Both the position numbers and the translations under genes were made by a program. Below the pieces are notes generated by a model. The model had not been told where the DNA came from. It did no database searches and saw only the letters and a program-made list of their open reading frames with translations. Of a stretch of DNA of 64,000 bases, positions 12,247 through 62,450 are shown piece by piece (the stretch's first letter is position 1; the number at the start of each line of letters is the position of its first letter). The DNA comes from Carcharhinus amblyrhynchos (lineage: Eukaryota). The stretch is from assembly GCA_965287045.1 (NCBI GenBank), contig OZ336874.1, forward strand, positions 91,512,001 through 91,576,000. The letters are read 5' to 3'.

Positions 12247-12270
12247 AAATTTGTGCCCAAATGGAAAATT

Positions 12271-12580
12271 CATAGAATTCTGCAGTACAGGAGGCTGCCA
12301 TTCGGCCCATCGAGTCTGCACCAATCGCAATCCCACCCAGATCCTACTCTCGCAACCCCACACATTTACCCTTGCTAGCACCTCTGACACTAAAGGGCAA
12401 TTTAGCACAGCCAATTCACCTAACCTGCACATCTTTGGACTGTGGGAGGAAACCAGAGCACCCAGAGGAAACCCACACAAACACAGGAAGAATATGCAAC
12501 CTCCGTACAGACAGTGACCCAAGCCAGGAATCGAACCCGGGTCCCTGGCATTGTGAGGCAGCAGTGCTAACCAGAATGCC
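12271..12580 (-). mobile_element. V-SINE
   Basis: Reverse complement of the full head, V domain and tail. Confidence 0.9.
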
Positions 12581-12647
12581 ATCCCTGGAAATTCACTGGG
12601 AAAGTGGCAATGGATTTTCTTTAACCATGGAGCATGGTCAGAGAAAA

Positions 12648-12950
12648 GTCACAGCGGTTAGCACTGCTGCTTCACAGCACCTGGAAACTGGGTTTGATTC
12701 TAGCCTTGGGGGACTGTCTGGAATTTGCACATTCTCCCAGTGTCTGTGTTGCTTTCCTCTGGGTACTCCGGCTTCCTCAGTCCAAAGATGTGCAGGTTAG
12801 TTGGATTGGCTATGCTAAATTGCCACTTAGTGTCAGGGGCATTAAGAGGGTAAATACATGGGGTTGGGAATAGGGCCTGGAAGGGATTGTTGTGGGCGCA
12901 GGCTCAATGAGCCAAATGGCCTCCTTCTGTAATGGTAGGGATTCTATAAT
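12648..12950 (+). mobile_element. V-SINE, head-to-head with the previous copy
   Basis: cacagcggttagcactgctgc head, V core and attctat tail. Confidence 0.88.
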
Positions 12951-13194
12951 AAAAAAGTTTATTCATGAATGAACAGCAATGCATAGCTGTACTGTAAATA
13001 CTCAATGCAAATTCTTGCAACAATGTGGCTGAACAGCAGTCAACTGGGTTTCAATTAATAGCTTTGATATAATGGAAGATCTTTAAAATAATCAATTTAG
13101 CTTTACATTACACTAATTTCTTTGTCTCCCTTTTGAACTCATTCTTATCGGTTTGATATTAATAACAATAGCTTTCCTATTTTTTTGCCCACAG

Positions 13195-14477: not shown

Positions 14478-16705
14478 TAATAGATGATCCAATCATCTGA
14501 GTAACATCAGTGTTATACAAATGCCAAGCTATGACCATCTCTAACAAAAGAGAATTATCTCCCCTTGACGTTCAATGGCATTAGCATCACTGGATCCCCC
14601 ACTATAATAATCCCCCACAATAATATTCTGTCCCTCAATATCAACAAGAAAGGAGATGGCCATTGACTTCAGGAAGTGTAGTGGACGACATGCCCCTGTC
14701 TACATCAATTGGGGATGTGGAGGAAATTGTCGAGAGCTTCAAATTTTTAGGTGTCCAGATTACCAACAACCTCTTCTGGTCCCTCCACACCGATGCTATA
14801 GTTAAGAAAGCTCATAAACACCTCTACTTTCTCAGGAAGCTAAGGAAATTTGGCCTGGGCGCTACAGCTCTCACCATCTTTTACAGGTGCACCATAAAGC
14901 ATTGTTCCTGGTTGCCTCACAGTTTGGTATGGCTCCAGCTCTGTCCAAGACCATAAAAAAACCTCAAAGGGTCATGAATGAAGCTCAGTCTATCATGTAA
15001 GCCAGCCTCCCATCTGTTGACTCTCTCTGAACTTCCCGCTTTCTCGGAAAAGCAGTCTACATAATCAAGGACCCAATGCATTACTTTTCTGGCAATTCGG
15101 GTTGGGAGATGCACATGTCAGCCATTTTGTGGGATTTGCGCAAGCATTCCCGACGCATGGGCATCTCCAACAGCCGGAGAGTAGGCACGGTCGAGACCAC
15201 ACTGGAAACTGGCGGGAAGATTATTATGGGATTATTGGGCATGGGACTGAATTTTCCGGGTGCGATAGCATTTCCCACACCGCCAGGAGCACTTCATTCC
15301 GGCAGATTTTAGAGTAGCTCCCCACCTTCGGGTAACTAGCGGGAGACCCCGCCAGAGTGAAGGGAAGGCAATTGGGGCCCCCCAAAGGGGTTGGGCAGCA
15401 GGAAAGGTGGTGCACCCAGGCATGGGCACACTGGCAGTGCCAGCCTGTGCCCCCGGCACTGCCCAAGGGACAAAGTGCCCATGCCCAGAGGACGCCTTGG
15501 TACTGCCCACCAGGCATCAGGCAGTGCCAAGGGGACAGGACCAAGGACAGTGCCGGGGGGCCTACTGTGGGCGGGGCCTAGGGGCTACTGCTTGGAGTGG
15601 GAGCAGGGTGGGAGGGAAGCTGCTGGAGATTGCGGTGTTCCGAGACAGGACGGTGTCAGGGCTGGTCCGGGAATGGCTTGGGAATGCTTGTGCGGGCCAT
15701 GATCAGGCCGTGGGGTGTTGCGATCAGGGAGGTTCTGAACTTCCGCTGAGAAAAAAGTCATGAATTATACTATTTTTCCGCAATTCAGCACTTAGAATTT
15801 TTTTGGGAGAATCACCCCCACTTCCACCTTCTTCTGTCGGGAAAAAGATACAAAAGTCTGAGGGCACCTACCAACCGACTCAAAACAATTTCTTCCCTGC
15901 TGCCATCAGGCTTTTGAGTGGACCTACCTTGTATTAAGTTGATCTTTCCCTACATCCTAGCTACGACTGTAACACTATGTTCTGCACTCTCTCCTTTTCT
16001 AAGTACGGTACGCTTTGCCTATACAACATGCAAGAAACAATACCTTTCACTGCATACATATGCATGTGACAATAATAAATCAAATCAAAACTAACATCCC
16101 GAAAGTTACCATTGACCAGAAATTGAACTGCATTCTCCATATAAATTTTGTAGCTGCTAGAGCAGGTCAAATGCTGGGAATTCTATGGAAAGTAACTCAC
16201 CTCCTGGTTCCCCTGTCCACCATCTAAAAGGCACAAGAGTGTGATGGAATACTCTTCACTTGCCTGGATGCATACAGCTCCCAACAACTCTCCGGAACGC
16301 AACACCAACCACGACAAAGCAGCCCATTACCACTTTCAACATCCATTCATTCCACCGCTGTTGCACAGTGAAAACAGTGTGAACCATCTACAAAATGCAC
16401 TGCAACAATTCACCAGGGCTTCTTTTGACAGCAGCTTGCAAACTCTGCCTCTGTCACCTAGAAGGGCAAGGACAGCAGATGTGTGCGAACACCACCACTT
16501 GCAAGTTTCCTTCCAGGTCACTCAGCATCCTATATCACTGTACCTTCCCCGTCGCTGGATCAAAATCCTGGAACTCCCTAACAGCACCCACAATACATGG
16601 ATTGCAGCAGTTAAAGAAGGCAGCACACTACCACCTCAAGGCATTAAGGATGGGCAATAGATGCTGGCCTAGCCACTGCTGCCCATATCTCATGAACAAG
16701 TAAAT
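14478..16705 (+). mobile_element. Three-level nest: family-B LINE containing a Rex/Babar LINE (about 14628-16090), which contains a GC-rich Harbinger-like non-autonomous element (about 15080-15819)
   Basis: Rex ORF reads VKKAHKHLYFLRKLRKFG...FYRCTI, with tail aataaatcaaatcaaa at 16073-16090. The host LINE resumes at aacatcccgaaagttaccattgaccag. The GC-rich insert ends ggagaatcacccc. Confidence 0.72.
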
Positions 16706-22800: not shown

Positions 22801-23544
22801 ATTCCAAAGCTAGTGTAGAGTATAGGGCTAACGGTAGGACTCTGAATAGTGTGGATGAACAGAGGGATCTAGGTGTATGTGTACATAGATCCCTGAAAGT
22901 TGGGAGTCAAGTAGATAGGGTTGTTAGGAAGGCATACGGTGTCTTGGCGTTTATTGGTAGGGGGATTGAATTTAGGAGCCGCAGCATCATGTTGCAACTG
23001 TACAAAACTCTGGTGCGGCCACACTTGGAGTATTGTGTGCAGTTCTGGTCCCCACATTACAGGAAGGATGTGGAGGCTTTGGAGAGGGTGTAGAGGAGGT
23101 TTACCAGGATGTTGCCTGGTATGGAGGGGAGGTCCTTTGAGGAGAGACAGAGGGATTTGAGGTTGTTTTCGTTAGAAAGGCGGCGGCTAAGAGGGGACCT
23201 TATTGAAACATATAAGATGATTAGAGGTTTAGATAGGGTGGACAGTGATAGCCTTTTTCCTCGGATGGAGAAAGCTAGCACGAGGGGGCATAGCTTTAAA
23301 TTAAGGGGGGGTAGTTATAGGACGGATGTCAGGGGTAGGTTCTTTACCCGGAGGGTGGTGAGGGATTGGAATGCCCTGCCTGCTGCAGTTGTAAATGCAC
23401 CTAGTTTGGGGGCGTTTAAGAGATCCGTGGATAGGTTTATGGATGGAAAGGGATTGGTTTAGGTTAGAGGGTCATTGCTTTTTAACTGGTCGGCACAACA
23501 TCGTGGGCCGAAGGGCCTGTTCTGCGCTGTAATGTTCTATGTTC
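22801..23544 (+). mobile_element. Young 5'-truncated CR1 LINE with ordinary short 3' UTR
   Basis: YKTLVRPHLEYCVQFWSPHY with one stop at 23091-23093, (ttctatg)n tail, and candidate TSD TAAGA (22796-22800 / 23545-23549). Confidence 0.95.
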
Positions 23545-24712
23545 TAAGAGGATATCTTGGCTATCCAAATGAATCCACCAAGTTCAGACCTACTTTTAAC
23601 CATTTCTAATGTCCATGCTTCACATTCTAAGGTTGGCAATATCTCATTTCAAGATGATTTAAATAGCCAATTTCCTCTGTAAAACCAAAATGCATTGATG
23701 AAACATACCCTGCCCCCATTCCTAACTCTGCAAAACTAGGGGCAGGTCTTAGAATTTCTGTTATGAGAAAAGTCTGGGCCTTGGCTTCACATTCTGGGAT
23801 TTATATTCATTTTTTTTTCCACAAAAGATTATAGAATTGACTTGTGTTTAAGTATTGTGCTTAAAGCAAAATAAATTTCCACAGGGTTAAAAAGGAAAGA
23901 CGACAGATTAAAGGTGTTTGAATAAATGTATTGAAAGGGCACTGGACAGTTTGTGAAATTTGTTGAGGGTCAAATACCTCATTGTTGTCTCATGAAATGG
24001 AATGTCTCCCATTTATCATAAGTAACAACTGCTAGCTCTCAGAAACTAAAGCCCTGCATTTTGGCCTTCACCGGAGAATAGAGCTTTCCCTCACTAATCA
24101 GCACAAGTCTAGTGTCAGCATTCAGTCAAATGCACCAGAATTCCATCACTTAACTTGGCAATGACCCCTATTGCATTCAGACAAATTGAGTTGTCACAGT
24201 GGCAATAAGTGAATACGAGTACTAGAATGCTAAACCATCCTTCACTGTCTGGAACGTGTTGGTTCAGACAGTTAACTGAGTCATACCTTACACCTCCAGT
24301 CCTCTGATCTTATGAATTTAAGCCCAACAGCCACACTTAAATGTACAGTAGCATTTAACATATACCAACCCCTACACATTCATTCATCCAGTTGGCATAA
24401 CACAAGACCACTCTGTGCAAACCCTGATCCCAATAGTTATTAGGGCAGACTTACAGTAGAAGCCTTGGTTTTCCCACATTCTGCTTGGTATTTATAGGTT
24501 CCCTGTCCAAACTGTGGCCTAATGGAGAGGCTTGACAGCCTAACAAGCAAGGCAAGTTCTGGGACAGGTTATAGCCAAGGGGCAGGTAGATTTTGTGGTG
24601 GTGGCTGCCAAGTTTGGGGGGGAAGGGTTGATCACAAGGGGATAGTAGGTCTGGATTGTGTGCCATTATGGGGTTGCACACGGTCACAGAAAAACTTGAG
24701 AGATGGGGGCAT

Positions 24713-46000: not shown

Positions 46001-46385
46001 TTATGAGTGAAAGCATGAAAAATGAACATGAAATTGTTAGGTACAAATGGATGCAACATGGAATTCCTCTCAACCCCATCTTCTCTTTTGTCTTTGAGCA
46101 GTCAGGGTAAGCTACAACCAGTGAAAACATGAGAAGACAGGAGTGGATCGCCCACATCTAAAAGTCCTGACAGGATTGGAGGAGAGGGCAGCCCAACTGG
46201 CAGTTGAGGAGCCGAACTAGCTATTGAAGATGGGGATTTGGGATGGATTTGGATGGTCTGGATTGCATGGACTAGATTTGGGCCTCCAACCAGTAAGGAT
46301 CTATCCATGAAATAGAAACCTAAGGGACAAGGATGCTGCCATGTTGGAAGCTGCTCATGCTGTTACTCGTGCTCTCCTTTGCTTT

Positions 46386-48135
46386 GGGCAGCAGGGTAGC
46401 ACAGTGGTTAGCATTGCTGCTTCACAGCTCCAGGGACCTAGGTTTGATTCCCGGCTTGGGTCATTGTCTGTGTGGAGTTTGCACATTCTCCTCGTGTCCG
46501 CGTGGGTTTCCTCCGGGTACTCCGGTTTCGTCCCACAGTCCAAAGGTGGCCATGCTAAAATTGCCCCTTAGTGTCCTGAGATACAAAGAACAAAGAACAA
46601 CCCAGCACGGGAAACAGGCCCATCGGCCCAACAAGCCCGCGCCGCCGCATCACCCTACACCTATTCTACCCTGCGTGTCTACGAATGGAACCCCTAACTT
46701 GCCAGATACAGGGGAGAATAGTGTCAATTTGGTAAAACCAATCAGCCTAAGAGCACATCTTTGGGGTGTGGGAGGAAACCGGAGCGCCCGGAGGAAACCC
46801 ACGCAACCACAGGGAGAATGCGCAAACTCCCACAGACACAGGCCCAAATCCATGTATCTGCACAGCTAGCAGTGCTAGTTACCGAACTGTTGCGGCGCCC
46901 GTCTACCGGTCCAGGATCAAGCACACACACCGACACGAAGTACTAGGCCACTCCCGGAACCACCAAGAGCAGCCCACGCACGACCCACCGTGTGCATGCC
47001 CCTCGTTTGACAACGAGGTGGACCTCCACCTGCGGAATAAAAGACAAAAACGTTAATCTTACAAATCTGCTTTTCCGGTGTCTCCCGAGGTTCTAACCTT
47101 ATTTAATAGCCCCTACCATAACCCTCCATCCTCGTTTCACTCATGTGTCTATCTAACTGAACCTTAAACGAGTCCAACGTTCCTGCCTCCACCACCCTAC
47201 TCGGTAGCGCGTTCCATACCCCCACAACTCTCTGCGTAAAGAACCTTCCTCTCACATCCAAATTATACCTCTCCCCCCTCACCCTTAAATCATGCCGTCT
47301 CGTATTTGTACCCAGTCTAGGGAGCAGTCTCTCACTATTGACTCTATCTACTCCCTTCAGTCTCTTATATACCTCTATCATGTCCCCCCTCAATCTCCGT
47401 CTTTCCAAGGAGAATAGTCCCAGTTTCTCCAACCTTTCCTCGTAACCCAGCCCCTCCATGCCAGGCAACATCCTGATAAACCTCCTCTGCACCCTTTCCA
47501 GAGACTCCACGTCCTTCCGGTAGTAAGGTGACCAGAACTGGACGCAGTACTCCAAATGCGGCCTAACCAACGTTCTATACAACTGAAGCATTAGATGGCA
47601 GCTTTTATACTCTATACCCCTTCCTATAAAGGCTAGCATTCCATAAGCCTTCCTAACAACCTTCTCCACTTGTGTCGCAACCTTCATGGATTTGTGAACC
47701 TGCACTCCCAGATCCCTCTGTATTTCTATACTCCTAATCTGTCTACCTTTTATCACATAGCTCCTCTCTGCATTATTCCTTCCAAAATGCATCACCTCGC
47801 ATTTGTCAGGATTAAATTCCATCTGCCACCTATCTGCCCAATGCACCAACCTATCTATATCCTGTTGTATCACCTGACAATCCCCTTCAGTACCCGCCAA
47901 CCCTGCCATCTTGGTGTCATCAGCAAACTTGCTGATCACACCACCTACGCTCTCTTCCAAGTCATTTATGTATACTACAAAGAGGAGAGGTCCCAGTACT
48001 GAGCCCTGCATAGGTTAGAGGGATTAGTGGGTGAATATGTAGGGATATGGAGATGGGGCTTGGGCGGGATTGTGGTCGGTGCAGACTCGATGGGCCCAAT
48101 GAGCTCTTTCTGCACTTTATGGTTTCTATGATTCT
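46386..48135 (+). mobile_element. V-SINE split in two (46386-46582 and 48008-48135) by an antisense CR1 insertion
   Basis: ...tagtgtcctgagat | gcataggttagagggattag... rejoins to the sequence seen intact at 62080-62115. Confidence 0.92.
46583..48007 (-). mobile_element. Young 5'-truncated CR1 LINE with uninterrupted ORF2 C-terminus and a 520 nt composite 3' UTR (copy A)
   Basis: About 300 codons open (QGSVLGPLLF...KFADDTK...RPHLEYCVQFWSP), stop at 47103-47105, (ttctttg)n tail at 46583-46600. Confidence 0.95.
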
Positions 48136-48139
48136 CTCT

Positions 48140-59837: not shown

Positions 59838-60567
59838 AAACAAACTACTTATTCTAATAAGAATATTCCAGTGTTAGGTGAAGTTAGTATCAGAGTGGAA
59901 TATGATGATATATCCTATTATTTGCCACTGGTAGTGATGGAAGGGAACAAAGTCTCGCTGATGGGAAGGACTGGCCTAAGGACATATGCATAAATGGGGC
60001 CTGGCTATTTACAGTAAGGATCAGTAAGAGTATGTATGTGTGTCACCAAGGAAGTGGCAAGAAAGCACAGAGTGGTCTTTGAGCAAGGATGACAAATAAT
60101 GAAACAAGGCTGAAGTCAAGATAAAAGACAATGCGTAGGTAGGCTAAGCATGTGCCTTTTGCGCAGGTACAACACATCTAGTTGCCACTCAATTAAATGC
60201 AACAACGTACATCATAACTGAAACTGTCTGCTCAACTGCTTTCCTGTCCTTGCAAACATCACTCTGCCACACTTCTGCTGACAGTAAAACCTGACAAGTT
60301 AGTTGAAATCAAACAGACTGCACCTCCCTTACCACTCCACTTGTTCAATCCACTTACCATCTCAGTGCCCCATCTAGAGCAATCTTCCAGAGCATGACCT
60401 ATCAGTCCATATCCTTTGGATCAAGGAATGTGAAGCATGGGAAGTCACCAACAAGATTCTTGTGACAAACCACATCTATAGGGTGGCAGAGTTTGAACTG
60501 TCATGGCAGATAGATTCAGGACAGACCAGAACTCTGTGCAACCAACCTCCACTGCTGGGTCTTAGTA

Positions 60568-61547
60568 AGACGTGGAGACCCTGGAGAGAGTGCAGAGGAG
60601 GTTTACCAGGATGCTGCCTGGTATGGAAGAACTGGGCTATGAGGAAAGATCTAATAGAGGTATATAAGATTATGAAGGGTATAGATAAAGTAAACAGTGG
60701 TAAGCTTTTTCCTAGATTGGAAACGCACATTACGAGGGGCCACAGGCTTAGGGTAAGGGGGGTGAAGTATAATTCGGATGTTAGAGGGATGTTTTTCACA
60801 CAGAGGGTAGTGGGGGTATGGAATGCTCTGCCAAGCAAGGTGGTGGAGGCAGGCACGCTGGAGTTGTTTAAGAGTTACTTAGATAGGCACATGAGCGGGA
60901 TGGAGATGGAGGGATATAGGAGACTGTTTTAAATAAGGTTCAGGAGCTTGGGATGCCCCTGGAAATCAATTGATTCCTATGGACCTTCCAACGTATTTTC
61001 TGGCTCACTTGTTTTACTTTTGAGCTTCTGGGGATTCCCTTGAATGTTTGTATAAGGATGTGCATGGTATTGATGTTTTTCTCTTTTAATCCACAGGTGC
61101 TTCGGTCCGCCTTGTTGTCCAACAAGGGGCATACACGCGATGGGTCATACAAGGGCTGCTCTTGGTTGTTTCGAGAGTAGCCTAGTACTTCACATCGTTA
61201 GTGTACGCTTAAACTGGACCAGATGCTGGGCAACACGACAGCTCAGTGACTATCACTGTTTGCTGTGCAGACACATGGATTTGGGCCAGTGTCTGTGGGA
61301 GTTTTTGCATTCTCCCTGTGCTTGTGTGGGTTTTCTCCGGGTGCTCTGGTTTCCTCCCACACCCCAAAGATGTGCTGTTAGGCTGATTGGTGTTACAAAT
61401 TGTCCCTAAATTAGTCTTCCCTCAATGTGGAATGCCATAAGCATAGACAAGGGTCATGGGTGGAGGGGGGACTCATAATGTGAAAATGGCGGCATGGGCT
61501 TGTTGGGCCGAAGGGCCTGTTTCCCGTGCTGTGTTGTTCTTTGTTCT
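60568..61547 (+). mobile_element. 5'-truncated CR1 LINE with a 615 nt composite 3' UTR (copy B)
   Basis: ORF2 end DLIEVYKIMKG...FFTQRVVGVWNALP with stop at 60930-60932 and an internal deletion near 60650. (ttctttg)n tail. TSD TTAGTA at 60562-60567 and 61548-61553. Confidence 0.93.
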
Positions 61548-61880
61548 TTAGTACAAACCCCTTAGGCACTAGTGGAAATTTCCACCGATGCTGCATGTTA
61601 CCAAGGAATGTCCCTTTTACCAACTAAGTGACAGATACTGGGGAAATGAGGAGGCCATTGCTTGGCTTTAGATTTTGACATTCACTAAAATATAAAATAA
61701 CATGTACTGATAGAAATAGTGAGTAAAGAGCAAAATAGATTAGAAAGAACAGGAGCAATTAGGAAAGCAAAGATCAAGGAATGGGTCACACCCATGGTGG
61801 TAGTTCAAGTAGCAGACTGGTCATTTGGATTTGTGATGTTTTTGAGCATATGATAAATCAGGTGAGTGAGAAGGCTCTGA

Positions 61881-62450
61881 GGGTGGCACGGTAGCACAGA
61901 GGTTAGCACTGCTGCTTCACAGCTCCAGGGACCTGGGTTTGATTCCTAGCTCAGGTCACAGTGTGGAGTTTGCACATTCTCCTCATATCTGCATGGGTTT
62001 CCTCCGGGTACTCTGGTTTCCTCCCACAGTCCAAAGATGTGAGGGTTAAGTTGATTGGCCATGCTAAAAAAATGCCCCTTAGTGTCCTGAGATGCGTAGG
62101 CTAGAGGGATTAGTGGGTAAAATATGTAGGGACATGGGGGTTGGGCCTGGGTGGGATTATGTTTGGTGCAGACTCGATGGGCCGAAGGGCCTCTTTCTGC
62201 ACTGTAGAGCTCTAAGAACATAAGAACATAAGTAATAGGAGCAGGAGTAGGCCATCTAGCCCCTCGAGCCTGCCCCGCCATTCAATAAGATCATAGCTGA
62301 TCTGTCGTGTCTCAGTTCCACATTCCCGCCCTCTCCCCATAACCCTTAATCCCCTTGCCTATCAAAAACCCATCAACCCGCGTCTTAAAAATATTTAGCG
62401 AGGCAGCCTCCACCACTTCAACGGGCAGAGAATTCCAGAGATTCTATGAT
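61881..62450 (+). mobile_element. V-SINE with an antisense young CR1 3' end (62214-62443) inserted in its tail
   Basis: The SINE tail actgtagag...attctatgat is split by (taagaaca)n-started CR1 sequence matching 42684-42922. Confidence 0.9.

Follow-up and report, generated by a model that had tools for sequence, protein, structure and literature searches.

The window analysed here is a repeat-rich stretch of elasmobranch DNA, 64 kb long. It holds two copies, A and B, of a LINE whose 3' UTR carries a SINE-derived segment. Both are 5'-truncated, and of this lineage's ORF2 the window holds 3' fragments only. Their features are listed below, with identities between the two copies.

Copy A:
46583–48007, minus strand: entire 5'-truncated CR1 insertion, within a host V-SINE
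47103–48007, minus strand: 3' part of ORF2 (end of the RT domain and C-terminus), about 300 codons open; young copy
47058–47102, minus strand: spacer 1
47028–47057, minus strand: 3'-splice-site-like motif, 25/30 identical to B
46901–47027, minus strand: non-SINE structured block (closing stem, 7-bp hairpin and long imperfect hairpin of ~33 bp), 96/126 identical to B
46842–46900, minus strand: remnant of a tRNA-derived SINE head, A box decayed and 18-nt B-box segment deleted, 48/59 identical to B
46757–46841, minus strand: V core, 77/85 identical to B
46728–46756, minus strand: SINE body past the V core, 25/29 identical to B
46647–46727, minus strand: spacer 2, sequence unconserved, 32/81 identical to B
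46583–46646, minus strand: CR1-type tail stem-loop and short terminal repeats, 58/62 identical to B
46385–46582, plus strand: 5' part of the host V-SINE
48008–48137, plus strand: 3' part of the host V-SINE

Copy B:
60568–61549, plus strand: entire 5'-truncated insertion, flanked by TTAGTA at 60562–60567 and 61548–61553
60568–60932, plus strand: C-terminus of ORF2, with a 50-nt deletion near 60648; older copy
60933–61068, plus strand: spacer 1
61069–61098, plus strand: 3'-splice-site-like motif
61099–61227, plus strand: non-SINE structured block
61228–61286, plus strand: SINE head remnant without A or B box
61287–61371, plus strand: V core
61372–61487, plus strand: SINE body (to 61400) and spacer 2
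61488–61549, plus strand: CR1-type tail

By each feature testable here, the carrier is a CR1-clade LINE. Both copies combine 5' truncation and a short or absent target-site duplication (TSD) with a 3' stem-loop tail that ends in short tandem repeats and lacks poly(A). The partial RT domain matches RVT_1 weakly, under the cut-off (E = 1.8e-5), and the best homologues of the ORF2 ends are RT proteins from shark, ray, bird and turtle. Among the best 120 of 5582 matches, named shark and ray proteins are 57–68% identical to the ORF2 piece and no match from a named proteome exceeds 68%. The copies resemble elasmobranch CR1s of the HER1 type in this ORF2 end and in their truncation, stem-loop tail, terminal repeats and short or missing TSD.

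Each copy has a single set of junctions. The halves of the host V-SINE rejoin across copy A with no host base gained or lost (microhomology or TSD of 0–3 nt), in agreement with the clean split reported in a preliminary description of this DNA. Copy B had been described as bounded by one TSD, TTAGTA; the repeats are present, but their first two T may be tail-repeat bases, so that just four bases are independent of the tail repeat. With one junction set per copy, LINE and SINE part moved as a single unit, as had been proposed. We ranked copy A as young because the CpG observed/expected ratio of its ORF2 part is 0.51, compared with 0.27 for the window, and copy B as older because 27 CpGs of A read TG or CA in B, against 7 in the reverse direction. 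The 50-nt gap in the ORF2 of copy B (60648–60649) is probably a microhomology deletion; its ends could fit GT-AG, and it is too short for an ordinary intron.

The ORF2 stop codon lies at 47105–47103 in copy A and at 60930–60932 in copy B, followed by 3' UTRs of 520 nt (47102–46583) and 617 nt (60933–61549), the latter becoming 615 nt if its last two T are counted as TSD. These values match the lengths of 520 and 615 nt, with a common module order, that had been given before. Other CR1 UTRs had been put at 80–100 nt. They are indeed short, but their range is somewhat wider: ten other CR1 3' ends were examined, four of them too decayed or interrupted to measure, and the remaining six have UTRs of about 55, 68, 84, 100, 101 and 104 nt. 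The A and B UTRs are five to ten times longer than ordinary elasmobranch CR1 UTRs and contain four extra modules. They align with each other at 76.7% identity over 497 columns (E = 1.6e-99), and the homology is continuous across the stop codon. In spacer 1, the first 11 of 11 nucleotides after the stop codon are identical, followed by 18 of 28, and copy B has ~90 nt extra.

As a reference for the embedded part, we aligned 12 free SINE copies from the window, which contains at least that many, and excluded shorter fragments. We take these to be HE1-type V-SINEs, a family name that follows the preliminary description. The embedded part of A and of B includes a V domain (~80 bp), and the V core agrees with the 12-copy consensus at 77/84 positions in A and 73/84 in B (0.87–0.92), compared with 0.84–0.94 for the free copies themselves. 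The heads agree at 32/56 and 36/56 positions (57–64%), scores that 11 and 9 of 2000 shuffles reached. The order and spacing of head, V core and body are those of free V-SINEs, and the span from head to 3' end is also about as long, so the SINE-like block first noticed in both UTRs is confirmed. The embedded part differs from HE1-type V-SINEs in its fusion to ORF2, its different tail and its lack of an A or B box. Both copies are missing the same 18 nt of the B-box segment, between two TGGG repeats, a deletion found in 0/12 free copies. Neither UTR matched a B-box pattern at 0 mismatches or an A-box pattern at up to one mismatch (textbook consensuses), patterns that the free copies do match. 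The earlier report of a shared B-box loss and a damaged A box therefore stands. With neither intact A and B boxes nor independent junctions, the embedded part is V-SINE-derived yet promoter-less and not independent.

Beyond the deletion, A and B share about 30 further differences from the 12 free SINEs, most of them present in 0–2 free copies. Within the V core these are a 1-nt gap and three substitutions, each found in 0–1 of the 12 free copies, giving four non-CpG differences. The shared deletion and the ~30 shared differences point to a single ancestral capture of a V-SINE, and we hold this history, together with the resulting LINE/SINE architecture, with high confidence. On the first claim that a whole SINE was absorbed, the evidence is mixed. 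Adding the 18 deleted nucleotides to the 318 and 322 nt observed gives lengths compatible with the ~335 nt of a free SINE, but only one of eight comparisons between the spacer past the V body and the variable region of free copies gave a match (19/1000 shuffles). The further claim that the LINE had captured its own parasite receives no support here. The A and B tails score 24–28 against the CR1 tail at 23485–23550 and 12–19 against free SINE tails, to which they are homologous, and these scores do not pair the local V-SINE family with the A/B lineage.

The lineage is old. Over 118 codon pairs, the ORF2 sequences of A and B differ with pS 0.556 (95% interval 0.44–0.68), dS 1.01 and dN 0.153, and 16 of 32 fourfold sites are identical. 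Because the tail distance of 0.07 limits decay after insertion, nearly all of dS probably accrued between active masters. A and B fall in one ORF2 clade with outside proteins (support 98/96, 30 rows), and a wider tree of 57 rows places them in a 6-row clade with support of 99 (rows with at least 85 aligned residues and at least 52% identity; a quick method on few columns). Some outside members, known from ORF2 pieces alone, are 89–96% like A and 74–80% like B. The preliminary description was right that the lineage is long-lived and that ORF2 and the spacers differ substantially between the copies. Calling the lineage autonomous goes beyond the 3' ORF2 fragments that the window holds.

Against this divergence the V core stands out, with a K2P distance of 0.10 compared with an ORF2 dS of ~1.0, or ten times slower (77/85 versus synonymous sites, p = 8e-11). 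All five segments tested, namely the acceptor-like motif, block, head, V core and tail, exceed synonymous sites in conservation (p = 2e-4 to 8e-11), with segment borders that were drawn after the A/B alignment was seen. The V core is more conserved than the block (p = 0.01), and not significantly more so than the head (p = 0.13) or ORF2 replacement sites (p = 0.35). The suggestion that the V core is preserved thus survived comparison with spacers and synonymous sites, and purifying selection on it is likely, judging from these rates. Constraint is not confined to the V core, which had been singled out as the selected unit; it extends to the tail and to two elements that the first description overlooked, the acceptor-like motif and the structured block.

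The block, 127 nt between the acceptor-like motif and the SINE head, is not SINE sequence. It folds as a three-way junction with z-scores of −4.8 in A and −4.9 in B (−5.9 in both when trimmed), and none of 120 random windows fell below −4.25. The antisense strand gave z-scores of −2.0 in A and −4.9 in B. A consensus fold fitted to both sequences has 41 pairs, all of which can form in either copy; 13 pairs vary, two of them on both sides. A shuffle control of this fold (125/500) is uninformative with two sequences. We also folded one copy and tested the pairs in the other, which gave 5 broken pairs versus 9.7 expected (P = 0.018) and 1 versus 9.5 (P < 0.0002). The same test was not significant for the head or for the V core (P = 0.14 and 0.45), whose own fold is unsupported (z −0.8 and −2.1). 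In fish, the Vhc stem-loop is not kept across whole V domains, according to the accessible text of PMC4758252.

A covariance model of the block, run across the window, recovered A and B plus the antisense arm of B itself at 18 bits. In Rfam the window had no match at the gathering score, and the best scores in the two UTRs were E = 0.91 and 4.7, giving no support for the block as 5S rRNA, a ribozyme, SRP, a miRNA or another known RNA; no tRNA gene was called. Comparisons with a decayed original CR1 tail or a second SINE were not significant (best 9/300 among 12 comparisons). A pre-miRNA was rejected on inspection by eye, as A and B disagree at the presumptive seed positions in each arm.

Substitutions in the block (46905–47025, minus strand, versus 61103–61223, plus strand) are skewed: 13 of 26 are G in A and A in B, compared with two C/T changes in the same direction, and most of the G/A changes leave copy A with G-U in place of an A-U pair. 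The bias could stem from A-to-I edits that became fixed in a long hairpin, or from drift that tolerates wobble pairs. At the site of the B-box deletion (46825–46865, minus strand; 61263–61303, plus strand), a new hairpin forms in both copies between the altered head and V's 5' edge, and its pair test was not significant. Spacer 2 (46647–46727, minus strand; 61401–61487, plus strand) has no sequence similarity between the copies, yet a long closing stem occurs at the same place in both; its fold is not significant (z −0.6 and −0.9).

Upstream of the block lies the acceptor-like motif. In copy A it comprises a branch-like TTAAC (47056–47052), a pyrimidine tract and CAG/G (47032–47029), and in copy B the corresponding elements are TTGAT (61070–61074) and CAG/G (61094–61097). 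Conservation begins sharply at the branch-like pentamer and continues through CAG/G (p = 2e-4 versus synonymous sites for the whole motif). The pattern, which was set after the alignment was seen, occurs six times in 128 kb, two of these being A and B. The opposite strand of the motif reads AATAAA in A (47036–47041) and ATTAAA in B (61090–61085), the two commonest poly(A) hexamers. No reading frame is kept past CAG/G, owing to a 2-nt indel, and a conserved peptide in the UTR was rejected on the same ground. By eye, several consensuses among the first 400 nt of ScyCan and CarCar CR1s (the available part of the PMC13343379 supplement) contain a donor-like GTAAGT. In the same material, one shark CR1 5' region has a pyrimidine tract and AG just before the ATG, hinting that 5' UTR introns are retained.

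We propose that a V-SINE came to lie 3' of the ORF2 stop codon of a CR1 master in an elasmobranch ancestor, whether through insertion, recombination or template switching, with a CR1-type tail staying at the 3' end. Since that tail was kept, the longer Pol II RNA could still have been reverse-transcribed; CR1-type LINEs stringently recognise their own 3' UTR, which is needed for reverse transcription (PMC3747384, in the text available). The captured SINE would have become part of a Pol II mRNA, and the lineage would then have divided into several subfamilies. Its Pol III boxes may have been lost or purged because every truncated copy would otherwise produce a Pol III transcript able to compete through its perfectly matching tail. 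On this proposal the UTR would be a folded RNA module that aids its own RNA in cis, in RNP assembly, stability, export or access of ORF2p. The V core would be kept for the same job as in free SINEs, acting on the RNA together with the hairpin and the tail. We assign this RNA-level aid to retrotransposition in cis, drawn from the pattern of conservation and folding, a probability of roughly 0.55.

Several other explanations have to be set against a cis-acting RNA module. The embedded SINE might be a passenger, its V conserved through conversion by the abundant free V-SINEs or through a recent UTR swap between ORF2 lineages. The V cores are as near the free consensus as the free copies are, a role as recombination aids has been suggested for V domains (PMC4758252, accessible text), and MER6 carries V at roughly neutral divergence (PMC6887750, accessible text). 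However, the four non-CpG differences that A and B share in V, nearly absent from the 12 free copies, argue against conversion, and the block is conserved although the window holds no free counterpart to convert it. A recent swap of the whole UTR would have equalised spacer 2, which stands at 32/81 between blocks of 86–94%; this pattern of V and tail against spacer 2 fits purifying selection rather than a swap. We regard a passenger as improbable. Far less credible still is an origin in two separate events, either chimeras that formed independently or SINEs that inserted later into dead LINE copies. Such events would draw on a window rich in free V-SINEs, but they are excluded for practical purposes by the shared derived sites, the recognisable head and the common deletion, all at the same position, and by homology unbroken across the stop codon with one junction set per copy. 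The opposite direction of flow, in which a LINE UTR of the A/B type was the source of V-SINE bodies, is also very unlikely. SINE bodies derived from LINEs are documented for RTE and Vingi (PMC5786205, accessible text), but upstream of V, and in register with it, lies the remnant of a tRNA-type head, clade relatives in the window have short UTRs (on weak deep nodes), and V-SINEs extend to cnidarians and bivalves (PMC4824008, accessible text) whereas the A/B clade branches among elasmobranch CR1s.

Two more alternatives turn on the acceptor-like motif. If it is a working 3' splice site, an upstream donor might remove ORF2 or both ORFs, yielding an ORF1-only mRNA or a Pol II SINE-like RNA, regulatory or mobile. 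The sharp conservation of the motif and its rarity speak for splicing, as does GTAAGT in the shark CR1 consensuses (by eye in the available first 400 nt, and in elements that may belong to other lineages). Against it, the pattern was defined post hoc, the sole donor-like site in the copies, just past the stop codon, is weak in A and poor in B, and the window holds no spliced copy. The reading frame past the site is not conserved, and a search of one sense frame of three against longer proteins found no match among 51 candidates, which is weak evidence. We consider a working splice site unlikely. A fuller version is likewise doubtful: splicing at the conserved site might produce a Pol II SINE-like RNA (leader, three-way hairpin, V and tail) that replaces the absorbed Pol III parasite, with V as a CR1 RNP signal for LINE and SINE alike. 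If it were true, the LINE would have domesticated a SINE as a regulated part of its own RNA, with an upstream donor skipping the ORFs. Selection might instead act on DNA, through an enhancer or antisense promoter in V and an antisense poly(A) signal that halts transcripts before ORF2. The hexamers on the opposite strand and the exaptation of conserved SINE domains as enhancers (PMC5786205, accessible text) are consistent with this. Yet block substitutions retain pairs by G-U wobble, A folds far better on the sense strand, and B has no G/U-rich stretch downstream of its hexamer, by eye; a DNA-level role therefore also seems unlikely to us.

A fusion of this kind has relatives but no exact counterpart in the literature searched, mostly outside subscription papers, where we found no description of the A/B architecture. 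Closest is MER6/MER6A, a MITE with a headless V-SINE body and tail that has lost its promoter and evolves at roughly neutral rates (PMC6887750, accessible text). It is likewise a mobile element that absorbed a V-SINE, but as a non-autonomous DNA transposon with no sign of selection, whereas the carrier here is an RNA-based LINE with a coding yardstick and a retained head remnant. Ingi-3_AC with Ceph/RTE-like sequence, LP-SINEs and 5S-headed Deu-SINEs also exchange modules between LINEs and SINEs, and in this group sequence is known to be added ahead of a tRNA head that then decays (PMC5786205 and PMC4758252, accessible text). These cases concern 5' UTRs or non-coding elements; a SINE core retained in a coding CR1's 3' UTR is not among them. 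In a comparison of Repbase SINEs with LINEs, the only LINE sequences that Kojima (2018) recovered from SINE bodies were 5' regions of RTE and Vingi, with no source known for the conserved bodies (PMC5786205, accessible text). The HE1–HER1 pairing is listed in PMC3747384 (accessible text). The accessible text of a 2026 CR1 survey mentions just a 5' UTR repeat, contains 'SINE' once in its main text, within a reference, and makes no mention of long SINE-bearing CR1 UTRs (PMC13343379). Its consensus 3' ends may well contain an element of the A/B type; four UTR motifs had no match in the first 400 nt of its white shark and catshark CR1 consensuses, the available region, which is uninformative on 3' ends.

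What conserved SINE domains do is still described as unclear (PMC11481361, PMC4824008 and PMC5499810, accessible text), and ideas on V fall mainly into two, an advantage for the host or one for the element (PMC4758252, accessible text). A V domain kept by a mobile coding lineage without a Pol III promoter argues for benefit to the element independent of Pol III transcription. ORF2 synonymous sites supply a built-in neutral yardstick for V, and the old question becomes testable in one construct, a LINE reporter with or without V. The case also runs counter to the usual flow of sequence, from LINE tail to SINE, and contributes a structured RNA block not described before. BovB LINEs, of the RTE clade, likewise absorb retroposon pieces, having SINE or CR1 pieces at their ends; we know of no conserved-domain core and no test of constraint among them.

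Copies A and B are the only two known to carry the long UTR, and the case rests on them. Searches elsewhere found no further copy: a 23-nt pattern specific to the embedded V had 0 matches in GTDB contigs, a plasmid search found none, and an ORF2 alignment search gave 7 loci from 27 candidates, vertebrate CR1-like pieces at 45–56% identity, none of which matched the UTR. The translated-UTR search in one of three frames mentioned above found 0 matches among 51 candidates, and a second gave 11 weak matches, nearly all of them within the query's V-core portion. A density of two copies in 64 kb points to a common family, probably present in de novo libraries without comment, and the element may already sit unremarked in repeat libraries. 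RepeatMasker would presumably split such copies into LINE and SINE, inflating shark SINE counts.

Database contamination is evident: bacterial assemblies contain vertebrate CR1 fragments, and some shark-like RTs carry the labels Klebsiella and Proteus. To find a host gene for an orientation test, 149 of 218 non-repeat frames of at least 62 aa were scanned; two matched Pfam, neither a clear host exon. The frame at 14624–14953 (plus strand) matches ALKBH8_N (E = 1.4e-12) within a repeat and is probably a C-terminal piece of a LINE rather than a host exon. At 62150–62444, a minus-strand CR1 3' end adjoins the tail of the V-SINE at 61881–62215, tail to tail, and at 12265–12956 a pair of oppositely oriented V-SINEs stands head to head, ~75 nt apart.
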